From Candidatus Scatocola faecipullorum (GTDB taxonomy: Bacteria; Pseudomonadota; Alphaproteobacteria; RF32; CAG-239), in the NCBI GenBank assembly GCA_018714685.1, contig DVNC01000029.1, forward strand, positions 3,764-67,763: a DNA stretch of 64,000 nucleotides, in the 5' to 3' direction. Position 1 is the first letter of the stretch; every line of letters starts with the position of its first letter. The notes below the pieces were generated by a model, which made no database searches, had not been told where the DNA came from, and saw only the letters and a list, made by a program, of their open reading frames with translations. The position numbers were made by a program, and so were the translations under genes. Shown here piece after piece: positions 3,587 through 63,134 of the stretch.

Positions 3587-5497
3587 ATGAGCGATTTTGA
3601 AGAATTATACCGCGTTTTTATCAAAACCCAGCCCGCCAAATCTGCCGTTCAGGAGGTTAAACGCCTGCACCCCGATCTCAGTGCCCGGCAGGCTGCCGCC
3701 GCCGCTCAAAATCTGGCCGAACTCGCTTACAATCTCGATATGGACGCTTATTTTAATCCCGAAATCAGGGAAGGCAGCGTCAGCCGCAACTGGAACAACC
3801 AGTTCCGCGCCCTTAACCGTTTGCAGCCCGAACAGCTGGAAGCGCTTGTCGCTTATTCGGAAATCTATGCCGACAAGGTGATGCCCTGTGCCGCCAATGA
3901 AACTGAAGATGCCATGCTGCGGGCGGTTTTTGCCATGTCGGCCCGGGCAATGGTGCTTTATGCTCCTGACCGCCTGCGGGACAAAAAACTGCACTTTCTG
4001 ATGGCTTCCGCCGCGCAAAAAATTGCCGATAACGGCAACAGGCTGACCCGCGGCGAAAAATATTCTCTGGCCATGTCGGTATTCACCAATCTCTACCAGG
4101 ACAATCCCGCCGCTTTTTTTAACCGTCTGGGCATGATCGGCAAAGCCGTTGACGGTTTGACAGACCGGAAAAACCTCGGCAAAGTCTGCGAAGAAATCGA
4201 CAATATCTATCAAAACGAAGGCGACATTACTCCGGTAATGGCCAGAGGATTTGAAAAATATGTTATTCCCGTTGTTAACGAAATTCCCGATTTTTCCACC
4301 CTTTCCGCCGAGCATGACTGTTCTTACGGCGAATACGGGCTGATCGGCTACACCAACAAGGTTCTTACTTCGCAGTGGACCCCGCGCAGTCTCAACGAAG
4401 CTATCGGCATTTTGAAAGAGGTTCCCACGCCCGATATGGTCAAAAGGGAGACCATCCGCACCAAGGCCATTCAGCTTGAAGAAGCCGAGTTTAGCGGCCT
4501 GCGCGACTTTCTGCACAGCGAGACCATCGGCGTCAGCGAGCTGGTCGGGCACATGCTGGAATATTACCATGCTTCCAAAGGCGGGAACAATAATGCCGCC
4601 CAAATCGCCGCCGACAAAATTAAGAGCGATTTGCGCAGCTGCCAGTCCGAAGATTTTGCCTCCGGTTATCTTGATATATCCCGTTATGAGCGCGTTATTG
4701 ACCGGGACAGCGGGCTGACCGCCATTGAAGCTTTGCAGATTGTGGCCGACAATGTTCGGAAAAACAACGCCAAACCGCCTTTGGTCAATGATCCCGAGCT
4801 TGACGGGCTGTCTCAGCGTTTTTTGCTCGAGGGCTATACCGACACCGCCGCCTTTGGCCGTTTTATGGAAGTGCTGAACAACAAAATCATTCAAAACATT
4901 GAAACGCAGAAAATCGGAATTTCGCCGCAGATGGTCGATTTAATGTTCTGGTGCGACAAAAAATGCACCAATCTGCTGAAAGACCGCGATTTCGAACACC
5001 AGTGCGGTGACCATAAATCGCCCTGGTTCAAACAGGTGGCGCTGTTTGCCGAGCTCACCAATTCCGCCGAAACCGGCTTTAATCGCAAGGGCTTTGACGC
5101 TTATTTCAAACATGTTCAGGCGCAGGATTATTTCTTTGATGCCAACAATATTTTGATCAAACGTCAGCGCAACAACATTTTTAAGCTGTTTCAGGCTTCC
5201 AAACAGGCTTGCCGTCAGGTCGGCGAAAATCTGCGCCGCCGCTTGGAACGCAGCGGGCGCGGCAGCGATGAAATCGATTTCGAAATCGAAAAACTGAACG
5301 GAATTTACGATCAGCGCAACCGCCGTATGATTTCCGGCAATCTGGTGGGCGAAATCTTCAAACTGAATGATTTCAAAAAGCCCTCCACCCGTCTCGGCGA
5401 ACGCTATGCCGAAGAAATGAAGCGCAAAGTTCAGCTTGAGCGCCCGGTCGAAAAAACGCTGCTGAAAATATTCAAAACCAAAAGCCGGAGGGATTGA
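3587..5497 (+). CDS. Hypothetical 636-aa protein with no recognisable domain
   Basis: Long ORF with RBS AAGGAAG upstream of the ATG. Its TGA stop (5495..5497) lies 2 nt before the next gene's ATG, and the downstream RBS GGAGG sits inside its 3' end. Confidence 0.7.
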   Translation: MSDFEELYRVFIKTQPAKSAVQEVKRLHPDLSARQAAAAAQNLAELAYNLDMDAYFNPEIREGSVSRNWNNQFRALNRLQPEQLEALVAYSEIYADKVMPCAANETEDAMLRAVFAMSARAMVLYAPDRLRDKKLHFLMASAAQKIADNGNRLTRGEKYSLAMSVFTNLYQDNPAAFFNRLGMIGKAVDGLTDRKNLGKVCEEIDNIYQNEGDITPVMARGFEKYVIPVVNEIPDFSTLSAEHDCSYGEYGLIGYTNKVLTSQWTPRSLNEAIGILKEVPTPDMVKRETIRTKAIQLEEAEFSGLRDFLHSETIGVSELVGHMLEYYHASKGGNNNAAQIAADKIKSDLRSCQSEDFASGYLDISRYERVIDRDSGLTAIEALQIVADNVRKNNAKPPLVNDPELDGLSQRFLLEGYTDTAAFGRFMEVLNNKIIQNIETQKIGISPQMVDLMFWCDKKCTNLLKDRDFEHQCGDHKSPWFKQVALFAELTNSAETGFNRKGFDAYFKHVQAQDYFFDANNILIKRQRNNIFKLFQASKQACRQVGENLRRRLERSGRGSDEIDFEIEKLNGIYDQRNRRMISGNLVGEIFKLNDFKKPSTRLGERYAEEMKRKVQLERPVEKTLLKIFKTKSRRD

Positions 5498-10929: not shown

Positions 10930-11850
10930 TCAGCCGTTTCTGGCTCGGAAAATACCGTTTTCATAACCTTGGATTTCACGGTTTTCTTCAGCCAGTTCCA
11001 AACGTTTGAGAGCTAAAGCGACATATTCTTTTTCTCTCTCGATGCCCACATAATGCCGCCCCAGTTTTTTGGCGGTAACCGCGGTTGTTCCCGACCCTAC
11101 AAACGGGTCAAAGACCAAATCGCCCGGGTTGCTGGACGCCAAAATAAGCTTGGCGATAAGCTTTTCCGGTTTCTGGGTCGGATGAGGGGTGTTTTCCGGC
11201 ATCGACCAGAAAGGAATGGAAATGTCGGTCCAAATGTTTGACGGGGCAGTCAGGCGGTAACGCTCGTCATCGTTCTGCACCCAGTCTTTCGGCAGGCCGG
11301 ACTTGTCGCGGTAAGGGGCAATAACCCGCCGCTGAACTTTAACCGCCTCCAGATTGAAAGTGTAATCTTTGCTTTTGGTAAAAAACCAAATGTCTTCCAA
11401 ACAGTTTTTCCAGTTGTTGGAAGCGCCGCGCCCTTTTTCCCGCTCCCAGGAAATGCGGTTTTGCAGCAGAAAATATTTACCGGCAATTTCGGGAATGGCA
11501 ATGGAAGTTTTCCAGTCGGCACAGATATAAATGCTGGCATTGTCTTTCAACAGCCGCACCGTTTTGCTCAGCCATTCGTCGAACCATTGCTGATAGGCGC
11601 TGTTTTCTCTCTCTTTAAATGTTGATTTGCCAAAGTTTTTGGTCAGATTGTACGGCGGATCGACAATCATCAAATCCACCGATTTTTCCGGCAGAAAATC
11701 AATGGCTTTCAACGCATCTTGCCAGATAATCCGGTCTTGAATTTCGCTTAATTCGGCATTTGTTTTGAGCTTAACCGCCTGCGCCGCATAACTGTTGGTC
11801 TGCGTCGTATTTAATTCCAAGGTTTTGTTGCGGGGAGCTTTCGCCTTCAT
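10930..11850 (-). CDS. ccrM: N6-adenine DNA methyltransferase, CcrM-like (beta class, GANTC-type family)
   Basis: DPPYN catalytic motif (MIVDPPYNL) precedes the AdoMet motif DPFVGSGTT, which is the beta-class order. Sequence specificity is inferred from family membership only. Confidence 0.8.
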   Translation of the reverse strand: MKAKAPRNKTLELNTTQTNSYAAQAVKLKTNAELSEIQDRIIWQDALKAIDFLPEKSVDLMIVDPPYNLTKNFGKSTFKERENSAYQQWFDEWLSKTVRLLKDNASIYICADWKTSIAIPEIAGKYFLLQNRISWEREKGRGASNNWKNCLEDIWFFTKSKDYTFNLEAVKVQRRVIAPYRDKSGLPKDWVQNDDERYRLTAPSNIWTDISIPFWSMPENTPHPTQKPEKLIAKLILASSNPGDLVFDPFVGSGTTAVTAKKLGRHYVGIEREKEYVALALKRLELAEENREIQGYENGIFRARNG

Positions 11851-12551: not shown

Positions 12552-12974
12552 TTAGTTGTTTTTGTCCCCGCAGGACCAGATTTTTACCGCGCCGAAAGAG
12601 TTAATCACGTCTTCGCGGCTCTTGGCTCTGACCAATTCGTCAGCCCGGGTCTGCTTGCCTTTGAAAACGATTTCTTCTACATTTTCGACCGGCACGCCGT
12701 AAGTCCGTTCAACCATTTTGCCCTGCAGCTCGACAATCATGACAAACTCGGCTTCGGCCAACGGGCCTTTGGTTTCATCGTCAATATTGTCCAGCTTGAC
12801 GGCCAGCCGTCCGTCCCGCTTCAGCAGAGCGGTCTTTTTACCGTCAAATTCCAGCACCGGATTAACCGGAGCGCCTTCGCGCGCGTCAATAAAAATTGCC
12901 AGTTCGCCGAACTTGTTTTCGATGATCTCATAAAAGTCCTGCTTCTCAATCAAAGTATAATATTGATTTTCCAT
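12552..12974 (-). CDS. Hypothetical 140-aa protein in the position usually held by hprK
   Basis: Lies 9 nt upstream of the EIIA gene. There is weak resemblance of DGKKTALLKRDGRLAVKLD to the HprK P-loop region GKSE.AL.LI.RGH.LVADD, but no intact Walker A. Confidence 0.5.
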   Translation of the reverse strand: MENQYYTLIEKQDFYEIIENKFGELAIFIDAREGAPVNPVLEFDGKKTALLKRDGRLAVKLDNIDDETKGPLAEAEFVMIVELQGKMVERTYGVPVENVEEIVFKGKQTRADELVRAKSREDVINSFGAVKIWSCGDKNN

Positions 12975-13178
12975 TTTCTTTAAGTCCTGTCAAGAAATGC
13001 CGGGCGCCAAAGCCCCTCCGGCGGTTAAAGCCCATATTGCAAACATATTATTACAATAACCCGAAACTGTCAATTTTGAGTTAATGAAGCAAAAAATTCT
13101 TAACTGCTTTAAAGATTAAGACAGCTGTTCTGAATGGCGGGTGTAAAAAAAATAAAATATAAAGCTTGCCGCTCTTTA

Positions 13179-14399
13179 TTATCTCTCGCTGACGGTATTG
13201 TTTTTAACTTCCCAGAATTGCGCTTCGCCGGACAGCGAACGAAACAGCTCCGGGTCGGTCGACGTAATCCAGGCCTGAACTTTTAAATCGCGGATTTTTG
13301 TCAGTAAGGCTTCGCGCTTGATGTCATCCAAATGCGCAACCACTTCGTCCAGCAGCAATATCGGCGCAAAACCTTTATCCAGCGTCTGGCATTTTGTCTG
13401 CGCGAGAATAATGCTGATAAGCAGAGATTTTTGTTCACCGGTTGAACAGAGTTCGGCCGGCATTCTTTTTTTCTTGTAATAGACTTTGAAGTCTGTACGG
13501 TTGACTCCGTCAACATTGTCATTATACAGCACATTGCGCCGCTGGCTTTTTAATTTGGCGGCATAAGCCTCTTCCACGTCCAGCGCCGGCATATTATCAA
13601 GCATTTTTTCAACCGTGCCGTCCAGCTCCAGCTTAACATTAGGGAAGACGTCATCCGGCTCATGGTCAATAAAAGTGTTCAGTTTGGCAATTTGTTCACG
13701 TCGCGCCGCGGCAATGGCTACGCCCAAACCGGCCATTTCCTCTTCCAGTGACGTCAGCCAAAAATTATCGGTTTGTCCGCTTTTCAGCAGTTGATACCAT
13801 TGTTTGTAAAGATGTTCAAAATTTGATGTCCGTTTGGCGTGTTCCACGTCAAACGCATAAACCAATCGGTCCAGAAAACTGCGCCGCGGCTGCGAACCGC
13901 CGCGAAACAGCCGGTCCATTTGCGGCGTCAGCCAGATAGCCGAGATATAACGGCCCAAATCACCTTGCGAATTTGTTTTAATTCCGTCTATTTTAACGAT
14001 TCGCCGGTCAAAGCTGCGGCTTTCTTCTTCATCGTCGCGAACCGATTTTTCCACTGCCGTTCCGATATCAATTTCGTCATCATTATTGCAGACGGTTGCC
14101 GAAACCGCCCAGCTGGTATTGCTTATTTCGGTCGGGGCATATTCGCAATCCACCAGACACGGCGTAATGCGCCGGATGTCTGACAATCTGGCGCTGCGCA
14201 GCCCGCGTCCCGGCGTCAGAAAAGAAATTGCTTCCAGAATATTGGTTTTGCCGGAACCGTTTTCGCCGGTAATCACAATCGGTGCCAGTTCGGCATTTAA
14301 CCGCAAATGCGCATAGTTCCTGAAATCAGTTAAAGTCAGGCGGGTTACGCCTGACTTTATACCGTTGTTTATGCTTAATATTTCAGCTGTGTTGTCCAC
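13179..14399 (-). CDS. recF: DNA replication and repair protein RecF
   Basis: Walker A GENGSGKTNILEAI, SMC-like signature STGEQK and Walker B LLLDEV. GTG start. Confidence 0.92.
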   Translation of the reverse strand: MDNTAEILSINNGIKSGVTRLTLTDFRNYAHLRLNAELAPIVITGENGSGKTNILEAISFLTPGRGLRSARLSDIRRITPCLVDCEYAPTEISNTSWAVSATVCNNDDEIDIGTAVEKSVRDDEEESRSFDRRIVKIDGIKTNSQGDLGRYISAIWLTPQMDRLFRGGSQPRRSFLDRLVYAFDVEHAKRTSNFEHLYKQWYQLLKSGQTDNFWLTSLEEEMAGLGVAIAAARREQIAKLNTFIDHEPDDVFPNVKLELDGTVEKMLDNMPALDVEEAYAAKLKSQRRNVLYNDNVDGVNRTDFKVYYKKKRMPAELCSTGEQKSLLISIILAQTKCQTLDKGFAPILLLDEVVAHLDDIKREALLTKIRDLKVQAWITSTDPELFRSLSGEAQFWEVKNNTVSER

Positions 14400-15729: not shown

Positions 15730-17181
15730 TCAGCTTTCCAGCGTGCGTCTCAATGCGTCAACGTTTTCGGCCAGAGAAGCATCTTCCAAAATCAGTTCTT
15801 CAACCTTGCGAACAGCATGCATAACCGTCGTGTGGTCACGGTCAAATTTGCGTCCGATTTCCGGCAGCGAACGTGAAGTCAGCTGTTTGGCCAGATACAT
15901 CGCAATCTGGCGGGGGCGGGCAACGGTGCGGGCCCGGCGGGAAGACTGCATTTCCTTAACCGAAATATTGAAATGTTCGGCAACTTTTTTCTGAATTTCA
16001 TCAATGGTCGTACGCTTGTCATACGAACGCAGCATGTCTTTCAGAACGTCCTGAGTCATGTCCAGTGTGATTTCCTTGTCGGACAGCAGCTGCGAATGGG
16101 CAATAACGCGACGCAGAGCGCCTTCCAGTTCGCGGATGTTGGAAGTAATTTTCTGTGCCAGAAATTCAGCCACTTTCTGCGGCAGCTCAATACCCAGCTG
16201 ACGCGCTTTGTTTTCCAAAATGCCGATTCTCAGGTCAAAGTCGGTCGGATGAATATCCGCAACCAAACCGCAGCCCAAACGGGATTTCAAACGGGTCTCA
16301 ATGCCTTCCAGATCTGCCGGAGATTTGTCCGCGGAGATGATAATCTGGCGTCCTTCTTCAATCAGGGAATTGAATGTGTAGAAAAACTCTTCCTGCGTGG
16401 TGTCTTTGCCGCCCATGAACTGAACGTCGTCAACCATCAGAACGTCAACCGAACGGAACTGTTCCTTGAAAGCTGTCGTGTCTTTGTAACGCAGAGCGCG
16501 AACAAACTTATACATAAACTTTTCGGCAGAAAGATAAACAATGTTGCGGGTCGGATCCTGCTGCTTAATGTGCCAGGCAATTGCATGCATCAGGTGCGTC
16601 TTGCCCAAACCGACGCCGGAATATAAAAAGAGGGGGTTAAAAGAAACGTTGCGGGATTCGGCAACCTTGCGGGCGGCGGCATAGGCAAACTCGTTGGTCT
16701 TGCCGACGACAAAATTATCAAAAGTATATTGCGGATTCAGGGGAACCGACAGCGACTGCTGGGAGTCGTTTCCGGCCTGAAAATCATTGCTGTTGGCCAG
16801 AACGGAGTTAATGCCGCTTTGATAGATATTGGACGGTGACGGGCTGGAGGAAATTTTCTTCAGCAAAGAACGGCAGGAGGGGTTATACAGTCCTTTGGCT
16901 TCGTCCTGAACCGCCTGAACCACGAAATTAACGCTTTTGATTTCGGGATTCTTCTTCTCCCAGATTTTGTGGATTCGGTCGGAATAGTGGGTAATAACCC
17001 AGTTGCGCATAAAACGGGTCGGCACGCAGATATTCATGACACCGTCATTAAAGGAACCCGGAGTCAGCGGTTTAAGCCAGCTGTCAAAGGCGGTGTCCCC
17101 TACTTCAGTTTTCAATTGGCTGCAAATCTGTCCCCATTGATCTTGAACAGAATTGTTGATTGTTGTTGCTTCTTCAGCCAT
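15730..17181 (-). CDS. dnaA: Chromosomal replication initiator DnaA
   Basis: AAA+ core (GVGLGKTHLMHA, VDVLMVDDVQF) and C-terminal DNA-binding domain (DHTTVMHAVRKV). Confidence 0.97.
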   Translation of the reverse strand: MAEEATTINNSVQDQWGQICSQLKTEVGDTAFDSWLKPLTPGSFNDGVMNICVPTRFMRNWVITHYSDRIHKIWEKKNPEIKSVNFVVQAVQDEAKGLYNPSCRSLLKKISSSPSPSNIYQSGINSVLANSNDFQAGNDSQQSLSVPLNPQYTFDNFVVGKTNEFAYAAARKVAESRNVSFNPLFLYSGVGLGKTHLMHAIAWHIKQQDPTRNIVYLSAEKFMYKFVRALRYKDTTAFKEQFRSVDVLMVDDVQFMGGKDTTQEEFFYTFNSLIEEGRQIIISADKSPADLEGIETRLKSRLGCGLVADIHPTDFDLRIGILENKARQLGIELPQKVAEFLAQKITSNIRELEGALRRVIAHSQLLSDKEITLDMTQDVLKDMLRSYDKRTTIDEIQKKVAEHFNISVKEMQSSRRARTVARPRQIAMYLAKQLTSRSLPEIGRKFDRDHTTVMHAVRKVEELILEDASLAENVDALRRTLES

Positions 17182-17854
17182 TTTATCTCCCCATCTAAAA
17201 ATTATGTTTCAAACTAATAAATCTCGCTCTTTCCCGGTTTAACTTTCCCCAAAGTTTTTACTGCCCGGGTTCGAACAAAATTAAATTTTAATTTTCTGTC
17301 AGCTTTCGCGGAGCATTTGCCTGACAAGTTTTTTGTTTCGGCTTCTGCCTGTTGAAATCTGCCTTCCTGCCTTTATCAAACTTCGCCCGTCTGCTTTTCG
17401 GGGTGCTTTGGTTTTTGCCCTTAAATATCTCTGACGATACTTTCGGCAAATTTCGCCGCGGCATCCGCATTCCGAAAAACTGTCCCGCTCTTGCCTCCGG
17501 GGTTCCTCTTTGTCATTAAGGCGCCTTTTCCGCAAGTCCCGGTTCGGTTTTTCTGCCGGTGGGTTTTCTCTCCGTCATGCCAATTTTCCGAAGAGGAAGT
17601 TTAATAATATTCGGAAGATTCGAAAATCAAAATTTGCGAGGTACTTCTCTAAAGTGATTTGGATACTATCGCCCCGAAAAAATAATTACAACAGAACATT
17701 TCAAGAACATTGCAATTAAATTTCTTGACAGCGCTTTTTTGCAGAGTCGCCCAGATTCTGTCATTTTGCGCATAAAAAAACACAAACCAAAATCTCCTTT
17801 AAGCTTGAAAGGATAAGTCGGTTTGTGTTTAAAAATGTCACTGAAAAGTGAAAA

Positions 17855-19396: not shown

Positions 19397-20236
19397 TCAC
19401 TTTTGTTTGGTGGGACAGTAAAAGGTTGAACGTCCGCCCTGAACGATTTTCCTGATTCCCCCGGTGCGGGCCGGAGAGCAGGTGCAGCCCGGGCAGGGCT
19501 GTCCGGTTTTGTTGTAAACGCAGTGCTGGTTCTGAAAATAACCGAGACTGCCGTCCGGCTTGCGGTAATCGCGCAGTGTCGAACCGCCGGCCTTGATTGC
19601 TTTTTCCAAAACTTCGCGTACCGCTTTCAGCAGTTTGCCGCATTCCGTCCGGCTGAGGCTGCCGGCCTCTCGTGTCGGCAGAATGGAGGCGCCGAACAAA
19701 GCTTCGGAGGCATATATATTGCCGATTCCGCAGATAATCTCCTGATCCAGCAGGGCAATTTTGATGGCCGTTTTTTTGTTTTTCAGCTTCTCGTACAGAT
19801 ATTCTGCCGTCAGCCGTTGGTCAAAAGGGTCGATTCCCGTGTGTTTGAAAGCGGGAAATTCGGCCAGCTTGTCAGAAATGCAGTAAGTCATCATGCCGAA
19901 CCGTCGGGCATCGTTATAAATAAGAACGCCGCCGCTCGTTTCAATCACCACATGGTCATGCTTGTCGAGTTTGTCGGGCAGACTGTCGCTGATTTTGACT
20001 CTACCGCTCATACCCAAATGCCAGACGATGCTCAAGCCGTTATCCAGCGAAATGACAATATATTTGGCGATTCGCCGGTAACCTGTAATGCGGGCGCCGG
20101 TAATTTTCGCCGCAAAATCTTCCGGAATAATTTCGCGAAAGCGATTGTTGTTTACGCTGACTCTGGTTATATTGGAGTCACCGATTCCTTTTTGGATGGC
20201 GGACTTAATCGTTTCGACTTCAGGTAATTCAGGCAT
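19397..20236 (-). CDS. mutM: Formamidopyrimidine-DNA glycosylase
   Basis: The start was moved to give the obligatory MPELPEVE N-terminus. H2TH region is present. The C-terminal zinc finger reads CPGC...YCPTK, with the last Cys replaced by Lys. Confidence 0.9.
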   Translation of the reverse strand: MPELPEVETIKSAIQKGIGDSNITRVSVNNNRFREIIPEDFAAKITGARITGYRRIAKYIVISLDNGLSIVWHLGMSGRVKISDSLPDKLDKHDHVVIETSGGVLIYNDARRFGMMTYCISDKLAEFPAFKHTGIDPFDQRLTAEYLYEKLKNKKTAIKIALLDQEIICGIGNIYASEALFGASILPTREAGSLSRTECGKLLKAVREVLEKAIKAGGSTLRDYRKPDGSLGYFQNQHCVYNKTGQPCPGCTCSPARTGGIRKIVQGGRSTFYCPTKQK

Positions 20237-20297
20237 TGCGTCCTCAAACAGATATTGCCGCCGCACGGTTGCGGCCGCTTTTGCGAAAGTATTATAA

Positions 20298-56815: not shown

Positions 56816-59800
56816 TCAGAAAACATAGTTAAGCCCTGCGGTAACCGCCAAATCCTGATAATCGCTGCCCGCCGTTGCGCGAACGGTCGAATACATGCTG
56901 AAGAATTTACTGAGATCAGCACTTCCACCAATTTCCAGCCGTGCATACGCGCCGTCGTCAATTTCGGGAGATTTGTCAAGGAAGTTGGTTATGGTGACTT
57001 CATCGCCGGAGACCGAATTAAACAGAAGGCTCGGTCTGATATAGGCCTTGGCATAGCCGCTATCCAGATTCCAGGTGTTTTCGAATTTAACGCCTAAATC
57101 CGCCTCCAGAAGAGTCAGGGTATCAAATTCCGCCGTTTTGCCGTAAATGTCTTTCGCATCGTCATAGCTGAGCGAACGGAAGCTGATAACGGCACTGGGC
57201 TCAATGTTGAAACTGTAATTCATGTTATAAACGTAACCTGCGGCAATACTGGCGCCGAATTCGGTTGCGTCGCTGTCGGAGCTGACATTGTCTTTGGTTT
57301 TGATGTCTGCTTCCTGTATGCCGCCGTAAACCATGGCCAGCGCCCAGGCATCCTGCCAGTTATGGCGGTAATAAACGCCGCCGCTGTAGCTGTCAATGTC
57401 AATTTCGCTGCCGTAGCGGGCAAAGAATTTATCTGCCTTGCCGTCAAATTTATAATTACCCTGACGGTAGGAGACAAAAACGCCTGCTTTATTGTTGTTA
57501 TTGTTATAAAGGTCAATTCCGGCTTCCCCGCCTACAATGTCGGCTTCATAGTTGACGCCGCTGTCATTGGTAATGGTGTGATAAATCGGCATGGCCCAGA
57601 AATTGTAGTTATTGTAGTAGTTTTCAATACCTTTGCTGTAATAGCGGTATTGCGGCGAATGCATCAGCCGGTTGTCCACCAGATTGTTGTTGCGGAGATT
57701 AATTTTGTTGATAACGTTATAAACCATGCTTCGCGTCTGTTCCAAACCGGCACTTTGCAGACCCATATAGGCCAGTGTTTCGGAATAAACGCCGATTTTG
57801 CCGCCGACATTTACCATGTCCATATACCAGTTATGCCCTTCATTGGACGTATCCCACAAATACGGGCTGGTATTGACACGCCAGATTGTGAAATGAGCGC
57901 CTGTGGCCGAATTGTCGTTCGGAGCTTCGAGGAAAAGGATTTTTTCCGTCGGTTTGGCTGCCGAGGTAATGTTGACATTCAGCTCGCTGGTGCCGGAAAC
58001 ATCGCCGTTGACAACCAGTTTGTCGGTTGTTCCGTTTAACGTATCGACTTTCAGCGTAATGCTGGAATTCGCCTGTCCGGTGTAATTGCCGGAAATGGTT
58101 GTCGTATTGTCTTTGTCGTCAGCCAGGTTTCCGGCGCTGACCAAATTCAAGTCGCCGGCATTGACGAGAGAACCGGTGATGGCAATATTTTCAACTTCGG
58201 AGGTATCCAGAGTTGACCCGTTGCCGATTTGAATGGTTTTATCGTCGCTGCCCAAATTCAGGTCGCCGGCCAGGCTGACGTCTGCCGTCCCGTCTTTGCC
58301 GCCGATATTAACGATTTCCCAGCCTTTGACCGCGGTAGAACCGTTGTCGCCGTTAGATGAAATATGATAAGAGCCGTCGGCAAAGGTCAGGCTCTTGCCC
58401 GCCGTGGTGGCATTAAGAGAATTGCCGAATTTGGCGTTGACACCTTCGGTCACGGTCAGTGAATTGATAGCTGCATCACTGAATATTTTGCCGTAATCAT
58501 AGCTGCCGCCCAAAGTTGCGTTGCCTGAAACCGTTACGGCGCCGGAGAGTGAAGCTCCGTTGTCAATGGCCGTTTCGGCTTTGCCTTTGATTTCCAAATT
58601 CTCAAGCTTGGCCCCGTTTTCCGCCGTAAGTACACCGCCGTTCATAACGGTATTGTTTGCCGTTGATCCGTTTTTAAGCAGAACCGTACCGCTGCCGTTG
58701 ATGCTGGTATTGCTGACGCTGGCTCCGTTATTAACCTCTAAACCTTTTGCCGCGGTTGAACCGGAGGAATTAACAATCGTATCGGCGGCCGTTCCGCTGA
58801 CGGTCATTGAGCTGGTGCCGTTCAACGTTGTTCCGACAGCCGAAGCCCCGGCGGCAATGGTAATATTGGAAGAATCATTGGCAACCGTATTATTGATGGA
58901 GCCGCCGTTCTGAACATTGACCGTACCTTTGTGTTGCAAAACCGTATCTGCCAGTTTTCCGCCGCTCATAACATCCAGCTGGCTGCTGCCGCCTACGATA
59001 ATGCCGGTGCCCGCACCGTTACTGAATAAGGTGTCATAATGTTTACCGTATAAGTCGGCATTTTGAACATTGTTGTTGGTGGTTAAGTGATAAGAACCGG
59101 TATCGGTTACCGTCAGGCCGGTAATGGCCTCTTGGGCCTGTGAAGCCTCCAGCATGCCGTTTCCGCTGACGGTTGTATTCAGGGCTGTTGCATTGTCTTT
59201 GACTTCAAGCGTTCCGTCCAGAACCGCGGTTTCGGAGACCATAGATGTTCCCGAAGCGATAATTTTTCCGCCCTTGGTAATCGTTGAAGACGCGGCGCTG
59301 CCGGAATCTTTGACATTCATCGTACCGCCGTCAACCGTAGTCGAATAAGCGTTGCCTCCGTCGTTAATGTTGGCTGTGCCGCCGGTGTTAACGGTGCTGG
59401 AGTTCGCTTCGCCGCCTTTGTTAACGTTCATAATGCCGCCTTCGTTGACTTCGGTCATGTTAGCGATACCACCGGTTTCCACATTAAGGGTGCCGCCGTT
59501 GTTAATCACCGTGTTATTGACGGTTGAAGATGTCGGAGTGGTTTCACTGCCGCCGGAATCTCCGGTATCTCCGCTGCCGTCTCCGCCGGTGTTCCCTTCG
59601 CCGCTGTCACTGCCGTCGTCGCCGCTGACGCTTCCGTCTCCGGTTATCCCCGCGTCAGGGTCACTGCCGCCATCTGCCGTCGTGCCGTCATCGGGATTTT
59701 CTTCTTCCGGCTGGTCAAATCGAACCTCAACCGTACCGCCCTCAATCACGGTTCCGTTGGCCGTACCGCCGTCTCTGATCAGCATATAACCTCCGGTATT

Positions 59801-60325
59801 GACGGTTGCATCATCCGAAACGCCGTTTCCGTAAACTTCAAAACCTTTATATGAATTGGAATCAATTGTTGCACCGCCGGAGTTGACAACCGCTTCTGAG
59901 ACATAACCGCCGGACAGCAGGGCGCCGGAATCAATGGTAACCCCCTCGGCCGTACCGGTTTCGGCCACATTCATCAATCCGCCGTTAATGGTTGTTTCAA
60001 TGGCCGAACCGCCTTCGTTTATCTGAACGGAGCCGCCGGAGTTAACGGTAGTTTTTTGGGCAATGCCGCCGTCGTTAACTGTCATTTTTCCGGTGTCGCC
60101 GATTGTGTTTTCTTTGGCAACGCCTTCAGCATTGACTGTCATTTCGCCATTGTTGTCAATCGTCTGATTGTCACAGCTGCCGCCGGGACAGGTAATGTTG
60201 ACCGGATCCGTATCGGGATCGGCTGCCCGTGCTTCCGTCATCGGCAAAGCGGCTGCTGCCAGATAGAAAAAGGATGAGATGAAAAGAAATTTTTTGGTCA
60301 TGACTTTTCCGGCCTTTGTAATCAT
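56816..60325 (-). CDS. Autotransporter (type Va) with a beta-helical passenger and a C-terminal beta-barrel
   Basis: Has a signal peptide and dozens of GG.A..T.I..GG..V-type passenger repeats. A Gly/Asp/Ser-rich low-complexity insert is present. The C-terminal barrel ends ...GLNYVF. RBS GGAAGG precedes the ATG at 60325. Confidence 0.85.
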   Translation of the reverse strand: MITKAGKVMTKKFLFISSFFYLAAAALPMTEARAADPDTDPVNITCPGGSCDNQTIDNNGEMTVNAEGVAKENTIGDTGKMTVNDGGIAQKTTVNSGGSVQINEGGSAIETTINGGLMNVAETGTAEGVTIDSGALLSGGYVSEAVVNSGGATIDSNSYKGFEVYGNGVSDDATVNTGGYMLIRDGGTANGTVIEGGTVEVRFDQPEEENPDDGTTADGGSDPDAGITGDGSVSGDDGSDSGEGNTGGDGSGDTGDSGGSETTPTSSTVNNTVINNGGTLNVETGGIANMTEVNEGGIMNVNKGGEANSSTVNTGGTANINDGGNAYSTTVDGGTMNVKDSGSAASSTITKGGKIIASGTSMVSETAVLDGTLEVKDNATALNTTVSGNGMLEASQAQEAITGLTVTDTGSYHLTTNNNVQNADLYGKHYDTLFSNGAGTGIIVGGSSQLDVMSGGKLADTVLQHKGTVNVQNGGSINNTVANDSSNITIAAGASAVGTTLNGTSSMTVSGTAADTIVNSSGSTAAKGLEVNNGASVSNTSINGSGTVLLKNGSTANNTVMNGGVLTAENGAKLENLEIKGKAETAIDNGASLSGAVTVSGNATLGGSYDYGKIFSDAAINSLTVTEGVNAKFGNSLNATTAGKSLTFADGSYHISSNGDNGSTAVKGWEIVNIGGKDGTADVSLAGDLNLGSDDKTIQIGNGSTLDTSEVENIAITGSLVNAGDLNLVSAGNLADDKDNTTTISGNYTGQANSSITLKVDTLNGTTDKLVVNGDVSGTSELNVNITSAAKPTEKILFLEAPNDNSATGAHFTIWRVNTSPYLWDTSNEGHNWYMDMVNVGGKIGVYSETLAYMGLQSAGLEQTRSMVYNVINKINLRNNNLVDNRLMHSPQYRYYSKGIENYYNNYNFWAMPIYHTITNDSGVNYEADIVGGEAGIDLYNNNNNKAGVFVSYRQGNYKFDGKADKFFARYGSEIDIDSYSGGVYYRHNWQDAWALAMVYGGIQEADIKTKDNVSSDSDATEFGASIAAGYVYNMNYSFNIEPSAVISFRSLSYDDAKDIYGKTAEFDTLTLLEADLGVKFENTWNLDSGYAKAYIRPSLLFNSVSGDEVTITNFLDKSPEIDDGAYARLEIGGSADLSKFFSMYSTVRATAGSDYQDLAVTAGLNYVF

Positions 60326-60374
60326 TTTTGCCTTCCTTCTGGAAAGCAGCGTTCATGATAAATCGATTTGTCCC

Positions 60375-60545
60375 GATTCTATCTTTTGAATTATTAACAA
60401 AATATTATGACGATTCGCCGGAGAGATTCTTCGATTCGCGCAAACCGTTGCTGGGATTCGGATTGAGTCAGGCAAAAAATATTTTTTCGATTCGCCGGAA
60501 TAAAAGGTTAATTTTTTTCCGAATCGCACAGACTTCGTCCGAATC
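60375..60545. promoter_or_regulatory. GANTC (CcrM-type) site cluster in the autotransporter upstream region
   Basis: Nine GANTC sites start at 60375, 60412, 60425, 60433, 60455, 60465, 60489, 60521 and 60541. CGATTCG occurs at 60411, 60432 and 60488, and its reverse complement CGAATCG at 60520 and 60540. Confidence 0.7.
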
Positions 60546-60557
60546 GCATTTTCGGCA

Positions 60558-60588
60558 TAAAAAAAGGACCCTTGCAAAAGGATCCTTT
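60558..60588 (-). terminator. rpsA terminator
   Basis: The hairpin AAGGATCC/GGGTCCTT has a G-U pair only on the minus-strand RNA and is followed by T7. Confidence 0.75.
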
Positions 60589-60630
60589 TTTGAGATTATT
60601 TAATCTCGGCTTAAAAACGGCATAACCGTA

Positions 60631-62313
60631 TTAAGCGTTTTTCTTCAGAGCTTCGCCCAAAGCATCACCGAGGGTTGAACCGGTAGATGTGTTGGAGTAT
60701 TCTTCCAAAGCTTTCTTTTCTTCTTCAATTTCCAAAGCTTTAACCGACAAGCCGAGCTTGTTGTTTTTCTTGTCAACTGAAGTTACTTTAGCTTCCAGAA
60801 CATCGCCTTCTTTGAAGTTGTCGGGGTTCTGATTGGCTTTTTCTTTGGACAGGTCGGCTTTTTTGATCATCGCGGCAACGCCGTTGACTTCAACGTTAAC
60901 GCCTTTGTCTTCGGTGCTGACGACGGTTGCTTTAACAACATCGCCTTTTTTGATGCCGTCCAGAGCGGTAGCCAGCGTATTTTCAGACAACTGTTTGATA
61001 CCCAGGCTGATGCGTTCTTTTTCAACATCAACGTCGATGATTTTGGCCTGAATGTCCTGACCTTTGACATAGTCTTTAACGGCTTCTTCACCGGATTTGT
61101 CCCAAGAAATGTCGGACAGGTGAATCATACCGTCGATTTCGTCAGACAAACCGACGAACAGACCGAATTCGGTAATGTTCTTGATTTTGCCTTCGATAAC
61201 CGAGCCGACCGGATGTTCTTCAACATAGGCAGCCCAAGGATTAGGCATGCACTGTTTGATGCCGAGGCTGATACGTCTCTTCTCCGGATCAACTTCCAGA
61301 ACTTTGACTTCAACTTCCTGAGAAGTGGAGACAATTTTGCCCGGGTGAACGTTCTTGCGGGTCCAGCTCATTTCGGAAACGTGAACCAGTCCTTCAATAC
61401 CGTCTTCGAGTTCGACGAATGCGCCGTAATCGGTGATGTTGGTAACTTTACCCTTGTAGGTTTCACCGACTTTGAACTTGTCGGCAACAGCCTGCCACGG
61501 GTCATTCTCGAGCTGTTTCATGCCCAGAGAAATACGCTGGTTGTCTTCATTGAACTTAATAACCTGAACTTTAACGGTCTGACCGACGGACAGAACTTCG
61601 CTCGGGTGATTAATGCGTTTCCAAGAAATGTCGGTAACGTGCAGCAAGCCGTCAACACCGCCCAAATCAATGAATGCGCCGTAATCGGTGATGTTTTTGA
61701 CAACACCCTCGAGGATTGAACCTTCTTTCAGGGTGTCAATCAGTTCGGCACGGGCTTCGGCGCGGGTTTCTTCCAGAACAACGCGGCGGGAAACAACGAT
61801 GTTGCCTCTGACCTTGTCCATTTTCAAAATCTGGAACGGCTGAGAAATGCCCATCAGCGGGGTAATGTCGCGGATCGGACGAATATCGATCTGAGAACCC
61901 GGCAGGAAAGCAATCGCACCGTTGAGGTCAACGGTGAAACCGCCTTTAACGCGGCCGAAGATAACGCCGTTGACTCTTTCGCCGGCATTGAGGGATTTCT
62001 CCAGATCCTGCCAGACTTCTTCACGGCGTGCTTTTTCGCGGGACAGAACAATCTGTCCGTCTTTGTCTTCGTAACGGTCAACATAAACTTCAACTTTGTC
62101 GCCGGCTTTGAGTTCGGCGTTTTGGCCGAATTCGCGCAACGGGATGCGGCCTTCGGATTTGAGCCCGACATCAACGATGGCAAAATCGGGAGTTACGCGG
62201 ACAATCGTACCTTTAACCACGGAACCGGTGATGCCGTTGTCGCCGAACTGTTCGTTCAGCAGGGCTTCAAAGTTTTCGTTGGTTTCGGGAATTTGGAATT
62301 CTGTATTTGTCAT
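60631..62313 (-). CDS. rpsA: 30S ribosomal protein S1
   Basis: 560 aa with six S1 repeats (G..V.G.V..I..FGAFV). Confidence 0.96.
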   Translation of the reverse strand: MTNTEFQIPETNENFEALLNEQFGDNGITGSVVKGTIVRVTPDFAIVDVGLKSEGRIPLREFGQNAELKAGDKVEVYVDRYEDKDGQIVLSREKARREEVWQDLEKSLNAGERVNGVIFGRVKGGFTVDLNGAIAFLPGSQIDIRPIRDITPLMGISQPFQILKMDKVRGNIVVSRRVVLEETRAEARAELIDTLKEGSILEGVVKNITDYGAFIDLGGVDGLLHVTDISWKRINHPSEVLSVGQTVKVQVIKFNEDNQRISLGMKQLENDPWQAVADKFKVGETYKGKVTNITDYGAFVELEDGIEGLVHVSEMSWTRKNVHPGKIVSTSQEVEVKVLEVDPEKRRISLGIKQCMPNPWAAYVEEHPVGSVIEGKIKNITEFGLFVGLSDEIDGMIHLSDISWDKSGEEAVKDYVKGQDIQAKIIDVDVEKERISLGIKQLSENTLATALDGIKKGDVVKATVVSTEDKGVNVEVNGVAAMIKKADLSKEKANQNPDNFKEGDVLEAKVTSVDKKNNKLGLSVKALEIEEEKKALEEYSNTSTGSTLGDALGEALKKNA

Positions 62314-62462: not shown

Positions 62463-63134
62463 TTAAAGCGTTTTTTTCAGCTTGGCTTCGATAATTTCTT
62501 CGGCTTTAACGGCCACTTCTGCAATATTGAGAGCCGAGGTATCGAAAATCACCGCATCATTGGCAGGTTTCATCGGTGCGGCAGCCCGGTTGGCATCGCG
62601 GGCGTCGCGGGCTTCCATATCTTCCAGAACTTTGGCAAAAGAAATGTCGCTGCCTTTGGCCTTTAATTCATCAAACCGCCGTTTGGCGCGGATTTCCGTT
62701 GATGCGGTAATAAAAAATTTGACGTCGGCCTGCGGACAAACTACTGTTCCGGTGTCTCTGCCGTCATAAACGGCGCCGTTCGCCGGGGTTCCGTCGGCAA
62801 ATACCGGAGTCAGGGCAAAATCCTGCTGCATCTTAAGCAGAGCGGCCCGGACTTTGGGATGTGCAGAGACGACGGAAGCGGCAACCCCGCCTTCGGAACT
62901 GCGGAATTCGGGGTCTTTGGAGAGTTCAATCATTTTGGGAAAAGTCAGTTCGCGGGCGATTGCTTCCGCAGCGTTTTCATCATGGCGGTCAAGTCCTTTC
63001 CGGCGCATCTCCAGCCCGACGGCGCGATAAACCATTCCGGTGTCAAAATAAGCCAAATGGTATTTGTCTGCCAGAATGGCGGCAAGTGTTCCCTTTCCGG
63101 CGGCGGCCGGCCCGTCTATTGTAATAATCATCAT
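62463..63134 (-). CDS. cmk: Cytidylate kinase
   Basis: IITIDGPAAAGKGT P-loop. Sits upstream of rpsA, the common arrangement. Confidence 0.93.
   Translation of the reverse strand: MMIITIDGPAAAGKGTLAAILADKYHLAYFDTGMVYRAVGLEMRRKGLDRHDENAAEAIARELTFPKMIELSKDPEFRSSEGGVAASVVSAHPKVRAALLKMQQDFALTPVFADGTPANGAVYDGRDTGTVVCPQADVKFFITASTEIRAKRRFDELKAKGSDISFAKVLEDMEARDARDANRAAAPMKPANDAVIFDTSALNIAEVAVKAEEIIEAKLKKTL

Follow-up and report, generated by a model that had tools for sequence, protein, structure and literature searches.

We find a dense and conserved row of GANTC motifs upstream of a gene for an AIDA-I/Ag43-type autotransporter adhesin in a 64,000-nucleotide stretch of Candidatus Scatocola faecipullorum (the window; contig DVNC01000029.1). 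With moderate confidence, we read this array (60374..60548) as the upstream control region and core promoter of the adhesin gene (56816..60325, minus strand), at which predicted protein binding would be coupled to methylation of GANTC. It would comprise a fixed-geometry row of seven conserved putative protein sites, with one or two variable sites among them.

A conserved GANTC array upstream of the autotransporter gene

Nine GANTC motifs start within 171 bp (at 60375, 60412, 60425, 60433, 60455, 60465, 60489, 60521 and 60541), where about 0.4 would be expected at the window's own rate, and the second-densest 171-bp windows hold four each. The Poisson probability of at least nine is 6e-10, or 2e-7 when corrected for the number of windows; in 20,000 dinucleotide-preserving shuffles of the 256-bp intergenic region the mean was 2.05 GANTC and the maximum 8, and none reached nine. 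The cluster is non-random, and chance is excluded. Over the whole window the motif is depleted, with 153 occurrences against 226 +/- 13.5 in dinucleotide shuffles, and the array region has a GC content of 40% compared with 47.8% for the window. Within the array, CGATTCG is found at 60411, 60432 and 60488 and CGAATCG at 60520 and 60540; GATTCGCCGGA is found twice, at 60412 and 60489, and the 11-mer TCCGAATCGCA also twice, at 60518 and 60538, offset by 20 bp. A first-pass annotation of this DNA had described the nine motifs as far above expectation, listed the five heptamers, the repeated 12-mer and the pair of 11-mers 20 bp apart, and contrasted them with only three GANTC upstream of dnaA (17182..17822); all of these sequence statements hold on recheck. 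That annotation would have been refuted if intergenic DNA of the organism often held GANTC at such density; this is not the case, no second cluster of at least six GANTC per 200 bp being found in 1.38 Mb of clade DNA. The window's own second densest cluster, with five sites in 190 bp (19997..20187), lies in the 5' part of fpg/mutM (19397..20266, minus strand).

Twelve homologous autotransporter loci were compared, nine further homologues having come from a protein database. The array is present in 11 of the 12, which carry 6-11 upstream GANTC at protein identities from 100% down to 30%; together with the shuffles, this upholds the earlier proposal of a non-random cluster in the promoter or upstream region of the autotransporter gene. 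Homologues that follow rpsA at 66, 60, 58 and 38% protein identity have 7, 8, 7 and 11 upstream GANTC, respectively, a 40% homologue that follows a NUDIX gene has nine, two 30% homologues that follow recF have seven and six, and a 31% homologue beside gyrB has seven. The one exception is a 30% homologue after dnaK, which has no upstream GANTC. Among the rpsA loci of 80 related species, an autotransporter gene with the cluster (8 GANTC per 400 bp) was found only in loci L011 and L013, the other 78 having 0-4 motifs. Because loci in such differing contexts (rpsA, NUDIX, recF and gyrB) carry it, the comparison indicates that the array belongs to the autotransporter gene and not to rpsA. A metagenome scan with the autotransporter alignment returned near-identical copies only.

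The geometry of the array is conserved along with its motifs. Positions are given here for site centers relative to the TTTGTTAA block (60394..60401, minus strand), which is invariant in 10/10 loci, and on the sense strand of the autotransporter gene; the comparison sets were eight orthologous loci and the 10 loci of a wider alignment. In the eight orthologues, the centers lie at -142, -122, -90, -66, -56, -34, (-13) and +24, constant to within 1-3 bp, and the 30% paralogues retain -66, -56, -33 and -11. Columns of the GANTC cores are 99% identical and 89% invariant, compared with 68% and 27% for the other intergenic columns (P=3e-11), and the spacers diverge in sequence but hardly in length. 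Lineage-specific extra sites are also GANTC (TGAGTCT, GGAATCG and TGATTCG in L098, L100 and L102). By this comparative evidence the array is functional, and its pattern of conservation is the one expected of a nucleoprotein complex assembled over several sites on DNA. The spacings of 20, 32, 24, 10, 22 and 21 bp, taken by arithmetic from the alignment positions, are close to whole helical turns, by which the sites would line up along approximately the same helix face.

Read along the sense strand, the array runs from the rpsA terminator through a distal part composed of TGCGATTCGGA-N9-TGCGATTCGGA, AAAATTAAC and GCGAATCGAAAAAA(T)ATTTTTT, a middle part composed of GACTCAA-N2-CGAATC, a spacer of ~15 nt, GCGAATCG and a variable site, and a proximal part composed of TTTGTTAA-N13-TAGAATCG, followed by ~45 nt, the Shine-Dalgarno sequence and the ATG. 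All sites described below lie on the minus strand. S1 (60538..60548; GANTC 60541..60545; center -142) reads TGCGATTCGGA and is identical over these 11 bp in 7/8 orthologous loci, including those at 38-40% protein identity, with L099 reading AGCGATTCGGA. S2 (60518..60528; GANTC 60521..60525; center -122) is a second copy of the same 11-mer 20 bp downstream of S1, and the spacing between the two is 20-21 bp in 8/8 orthologues. A AAAAATTAAC block (60507..60516), kept in 7/8 orthologues, separates S2 from S3 (60486..60495; GANTC 60489..60493; center -90), which reads GCGAATCGAA and of which CGAATCGAAAAA is invariant across the eight orthologues. Between S3 and S4, the alignment conserves an A/T palindrome, AAAAAATATTTTTT (60474..60487, assigned to neither strand), which may be a bend or a site for an architectural protein.

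The remaining sites lie closer to the gene. S4 (TGACTCA, 60464..60470; GANTC 60465..60469; center -66) is the sole site with C/G as the central base and without C...G flanks, and GACTCAA is found in 9/10 aligned loci. S5 (CGAATCC, 60454..60460; GANTC 60455..60459; center -56) lies 10 bp from S4, and both its CGAATC and the GCGAATCG of S6 (60432..60438; GANTC 60433..60437; center -34) are invariant in 10/10 aligned loci. An extra GANTC (AGAATCT, 60424..60430; GANTC 60425..60429) is found in this species only and, being missing in L011 and L013, lies outside the conserved core. S7 (CGAATCG, 60411..60417; GANTC 60412..60416; center -13) is partly conserved: it is present in the window, L011, L013 and L099 and lost in L096 and L097, with GGAATCG at +11 instead in L098 and L100. 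S8 (TAGAATCG, 60374..60382; GANTC 60375..60379; center +24) is found in 9/10 loci. The commonest form among these sites is the 7-bp palindrome CGAWTCG; in S1 and S2 the conservation reaches 11 bp. Blocks of 11 bp such as TGCGATTCGGA point to a dedicated sequence-specific binding protein. Since the invariant S4 shares the GANTC core alone with the other sites, the comparison also points to GANTC itself as their common denominator.

Candidate promoter elements are found at the proximal end. The TTTGTTAA block may be a -35-like or a regulator element, and the GAATC of S8 overlaps a -10-like TAGAAT that could act as the -10; the gap from TTGTTA to TAGAAT is only 13 bp, too short for a standard sigma-70 promoter. 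Between S8/TAGAAT and the ribosome-binding site, a 10-bp palindrome, AAATCGATTT (60357..60372, assigned to neither strand), is conserved in close orthologues only and may be a separate operator. CtrA boxes (TTAA-N7-TTAA) were looked for by eye, and lone TTAA or TTAAC half-sites only were seen. The region also contains a 37-nt direct repeat (60386..60422 and 60463..60499, 76% identical and 77 bp apart) that pairs the segment from S7 to TTTGTTAA with that from S3 to S4, which suggests that the array has grown by duplication.

The gene downstream starts with the ATG at 60325, preceded by GGAAGG, with an alternative ATG at 60301, and encodes a protein of 1,169 residues with Pfam matches to AIDA and Autotransporter. 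It has the C-terminal β-barrel (PF03797, E=1.8e-25) and the AIDA-type repeat passenger (PF16168, E=1e-22) that define a type Va, AIDA-I/Ag43-like autotransporter. In NCBIfam it matches TIGR01414 (barrel) and TIGR04415 (heptosylation-target repeat), and its scores against the AIDA-I and Ag43 models are weak (48.8-70 bits against cut-offs of 1200). Upstream, the array is bordered by the intrinsic terminator of rpsA (60551..60591, minus strand), which consists of a hairpin with a 14-bp stem (60560..60591) followed by a T run; the array thus lies between this terminator and the autotransporter start, where the first-pass annotation had placed it. Beyond the terminator the gene order continues with rpsA (60631..62313, minus strand; Pfam) and cmk (62463..63134, minus strand). 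A LuxR-type response regulator encoded 3 kb beyond rpsA was considered as a linked regulator and set aside; it is not linked to the array in other genomic contexts.

The closest genomes to the window are metagenome-assembled genomes (MAGs) that bear the labels uncultured Alphaproteobacteria or 'Azospirillum sp. 51_20' and come from the guts of humans and ruminants, in agreement with the alphaproteobacterial host proposed earlier. An identical RpsA is encoded on human gut metagenome contigs as long as 2.0 Mb, and the rpsA of the species is indexed in >6,000 assembly-collection blocks. Some variation between strains was seen outside the array. In L003, a resolvase/recombinase gene (12563..13683) downstream of the nitroreductase gene replaces the DMT_6 and T2SSE of other strains, a strain-specific insertion near the autotransporter locus. 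A 386-residue open reading frame (ORF) without Pfam matches follows dnaK in L114 (3273..4433) and in L116 and is absent from the others (compare L115), and is hence strain-variable. In related species, array-bearing paralogues that follow recF or lie beside gyrB (L101 3001..7152, L124 3001..6318 and L102 3001..7431) sit within the dnaA-dnaN-recF-gyrB neighborhood; the window copy lies ~43 kb from dnaA (15730..17181). Nearness to the presumed replication origin would prolong the hemimethylated period.

Probable GANTC modification and the window methyltransferase

Clade-wide, GANTC occurs at 0.72-0.74 of expectation under a third-order Markov model, and no others among the 16 palindromes of that type are as depleted as GANTC, GGNCC and CCNGG. 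The depletion is stronger in coding sequence (0.70) than in intergenic sequence (0.88-0.91), the same direction as the coding-biased depletion of GANTC described for CcrM-bearing Alphaproteobacteria (PMC3973325). A second line of evidence comes from a 1.94-Mb contig (ERZ28759960 contig_12759; loci L001 and L114), which has a Flye-style name and frameshifted genes and is long-read-style, its platform being presumed. Nanopore assemblies carry systematic consensus errors at modified motifs. Over 34.6 kb this contig shows 54 private differences from other strains, of which nine fall in GANTC where 0.68 would be expected (P=2.5e-8), mostly as G>A at the first G or as an A inserted after the first G. 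GGNCC accounts for ten more (P=9e-12) and CCNGG for seven (P=6e-5), whereas the other 13 palindromes of the type are not enriched, nor are differences in the other assemblies when pooled. Two of the nine GANTC differences lie inside the array: the contig has an extra A inserted at S4 and reads AAATC at S8.

Because the motifs with this error signature are also the three depleted ones, methylation of GANTC in the species is probable. The earlier suggestion that GANTC is a plausible methylation target here thus gains support from both the depletion (~0.72) and the hot spots in contig_12759. The same pattern suggests a three-motif methylome (GGNCC, CCNGG and GANTC) for the species, and assembly errors would offer a cheap way to infer methylated motifs.

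The window encodes an orphan β-class N6-adenine DNA methyltransferase of 306 residues (10930..11850, minus strand) with a Pfam match to N6_N4_Mtase (E=1.5e-49) and motif IV reading DPPY in alignments. The DPPY motif marks the N6-adenine type. No nuclease gene neighbors it, and in other strains and in clade species the gene likewise follows EIIA(Man)-HPr downstream of dnaA-dnaN-recF (L101 10098..10152; L124 9261..9318); such a core-genome position is unusual for a restriction-modification gene. The β-class N6-adenine fold, the DPPY motif, the orphan status and the clade-conserved position are shared with CcrM. In contrast, the enzyme lacks the CcrM C-terminal domain (PMC3973325) and scores 125 bits against the CcrM model NF050803, in two separate stretches, far below the cut-off of 830. 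It ends 22 residues past the catalytic domain, and its alignment to 6pbd reaches no further than residue 258 of 366. The highest-scoring model is PRK11524 (YhdJ type) at 166 bits against a cut-off of 292, and among solved structures M.BceJIV and M.MboIIA outrank CcrM, the enzyme being about equally close to all three. The comparisons indicate that it is not a CcrM orthologue, and the NCBIfam model comparison found no true CcrM orthologue in the window. Of the first-pass description as a CcrM-family methyltransferase, the β-class N6-adenine assignment with its DPPY motif therefore stands, and the attribution to CcrM (125/830 bits, no C-terminal domain) does not. Among the three error-flagged motifs, GANTC alone has an adenine at a defined position; since the enzyme is of the adenine type, it is a reasonable candidate for the GANTC methylase of the host.

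Proposed control model and its alternatives

In the model that we favor, a putative sequence-specific DNA-binding protein would occupy the roughly phased sites, each built around a GANTC that the host would methylate, most of them of the form CGAWTCG and extending over 11 bp in S1 and S2. Binding and N6-adenine methylation at the same GANTCs would affect each other, in that the bound protein might shield the sites from the methylase, or methylation might either block or promote protein binding. Transcription of the adhesin gene would be set by the methylation state of the array. Because this state would be reset at each replication, the output could be a cell-cycle signal or inherited ON/OFF lineages, much like the Dam/OxyR switches and the hypomethylated MucR/CcrM promoters discussed below. 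We infer the protein binding, the coupling to methylation and the cell-cycle or phase-variable output. The first-pass annotation had offered, as an alternative to methylation-dependent control, a set of sites for a regulator whose target overlaps GANTC, and this idea forms part of the favored model.

Several observations weigh against this model. Both the depletion of GANTC and its intergenic bias are milder than those published for typical CcrM-bearing orders (PMC3973325). The case for methylation leans on the error signature of one assembly of presumed platform, and a second assembly (L112, 1.95 Mb), with 2/21 private differences in GANTC, lends it weak support. A consensus scan of the region for sigma-70 promoters and terminators gave no match. 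Among strains of the species, no variation in sequence hints at switching, although an epigenetic switch would show none.

A different reading assigns the sites to a regulator of their own, such as a response regulator, that recognizes CGAWTCG or TGCGATTCGGA, with GANTC merely part of its site and methylation without a role. We regard this as a possibility to be taken seriously, if an unlikely one. Conserved blocks of 7-11 bp do exceed GANTC, each site keeps its own flanks across species, and all conserved sites except one have A or T as their central base; transcription factors that assemble cooperatively typically show such fixed spacing, and no CcrM orthologue was recognized in the window. 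However, the invariant S4 (TGACTCA) has GANTC alone in common with the other sites, the lineage-specific extra sites in L098, L100 and L102 are again GANTC, and in the rest of the genome selection acts against this motif. Furthermore, if GANTC is methylated, a protein that reads its major groove cannot ignore m6A.

It is also conceivable, although improbable, that the array is a canonical CcrM/GcrA promoter, in which GcrA, tethered to sigma-70, would read methylated YGAKTCK boxes and switch on the adhesin gene during S phase. Both CcrM and GcrA occur widely among Alphaproteobacteria (PMC3973325, PMC3667746), one site overlaps the -10-like TAGAAT, and six of the nine sites fit YGAKTCK, compared with 25-29% of background GANTC (motif from PMC4647560). 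The first-pass annotation had given this motif correctly and had pointed out the fit of CGATTCG, which resembles the published Caulobacter consensus TGATTCG (PMC4647560), both organisms being alphaproteobacterial. AGAATCG and CGAATCG, which outnumber all other NGANTCN heptamers in intergenic DNA of the clade, fit as well. The enrichment in the array is, however, only modestly significant (P about 0.02), and as a clade-wide proxy for GcrA the share of YGAKTCK among intergenic GANTCs is not significant (29% vs 25%, P=0.12). GcrA boxes lie at -20 +/- 1, at -30 +/- 2 or between +5 and +30, usually one per promoter, and boxes farther away are thought to be too distant for the linker (PMC9976885). 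From the first to the last, the seven conserved sites cover 166 bp, so that most fall outside the GcrA range wherever transcription starts, and a GcrA monomer binds ~7 bp, yet conservation in S1 and S2 extends over 11 bp. In Caulobacter one box, rarely two, is found within -32..+30, in contrast to 7-9 sites over ~170 bp in both orientations in the array. A linker of fixed length that tethers GcrA to sigma-70 limits the number and positions of boxes (PMC9976885). The array is too long for a canonical GcrA promoter, and at most its promoter-proximal sites could be GcrA boxes. A tblastn search with fragments of GcrA (its N-terminus), MucR and CtrA gave no GcrA or MucR match in the ~3% of the genome scanned and is uninformative.

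Very improbable, finally, is that the array is no DNA-level regulatory element but a structured leader RNA or sRNA, a short coding ORF, a dispersed repeat, the remnant of a mobile element, an invertible promoter segment or a product of chance: spurious ORFs overlap it (60328..60603, plus strand, and 60353..60577, minus strand), inverted repeats pair S1/S2 with S5 and the 37-nt direct repeat lies within it, but the Poisson and shuffle statistics exclude chance. The other candidates of this kind were each examined and rejected. Rfam returned weak terminator-like matches only, and the RNA folding z-score was -1.1; 1-bp spacer indels between orthologues break every reading frame; the 11-mer and close CGAWTCG pairs are found at this locus only in 1.4 Mb, bar two unrelated pairs in L067; and 15/15 same-species copies have one orientation. 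Slipped-strand or repeat-number phase variation was rejected too, there being no homopolymer or repeat-number change in the 15 copies. The two L067 pairs (4154..4183 and 5384..5413), each 29 bp apart, are probably repeated sequence in that MAG.

Relation to known methylation-controlled surface genes

The closest architectures to the array, by analogy, are the Dam/OxyR switches (opvAB and gtr of Salmonella, agn43 of E. coli) and the MucR-shielded GANTC promoters. In opvAB, four GATC motifs and as many OxyR half-sites occupy the same face of the helix from -172 to -43; Dam methylation and OxyR likewise control agn43, the gene for the autotransporter Ag43 (PMC4856963). Like these switches, the array combines several copies of a motif that a resident methylase probably targets with fixed spacing, on roughly one helix face, in front of or across the promoter of a gene for a surface structure, its regulator sites being putative; several of these probable target motifs lie in the control region of an AIDA/Ag43-type gene. 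It differs in its motif (GANTC, not GATC), in its alphaproteobacterial rather than gammaproteobacterial host, in having 7-9 sites instead of 3-4, and in that these are unlike OxyR sites. ON/OFF methylation patterns are a feature of the known switches and a prediction for the array.

In Alphaproteobacteria, MucR shields promoter GANTCs from CcrM, and the Caulobacter CCNA_00169 promoter has multiple GANTCs (PMC5172544); in Brucella, one shielded GANTC adjoins the autotransporter BAB2_1107 (bioRxiv 10.1101/2024.03.01.583015). The MucR-shielded promoters of Caulobacter, Sinorhizobium and Brucella resemble the array in placing GANTC in promoters of envelope or surface genes of Alphaproteobacteria. 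MucR, however, binds AT-rich DNA without a GANTC-centered consensus, whereas the GANTCs of the array carry conserved flanks of 7-11 bp and are rigidly spaced. No description of a comparably ordered GANTC array was found in the literature searched.

A bolder form of the favored model, which we put forward tentatively and consider rather doubtful, is that the array is an alphaproteobacterial counterpart of the Dam/OxyR control of Ag43: a GANTC ON/OFF switch, built from a non-CcrM orphan methylase and a putative CGAWTCG-binding protein, that would be common to this autotransporter family of uncultured human and ruminant gut Alphaproteobacteria. Arrays of methylation motifs that control surface proteins have been studied in depth for enterobacterial Dam (GATC) only, and in Alphaproteobacteria GANTC methylation is known chiefly as a cell-cycle signal with scattered hypomethylated sites. 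The array provides a precise sequence bait for finding its regulator. If the model is true, control of surface proteins by methylation would gain a new motif and a new clade, and perhaps a new methylase as well, in gut bacteria that are very prevalent and uncultured.

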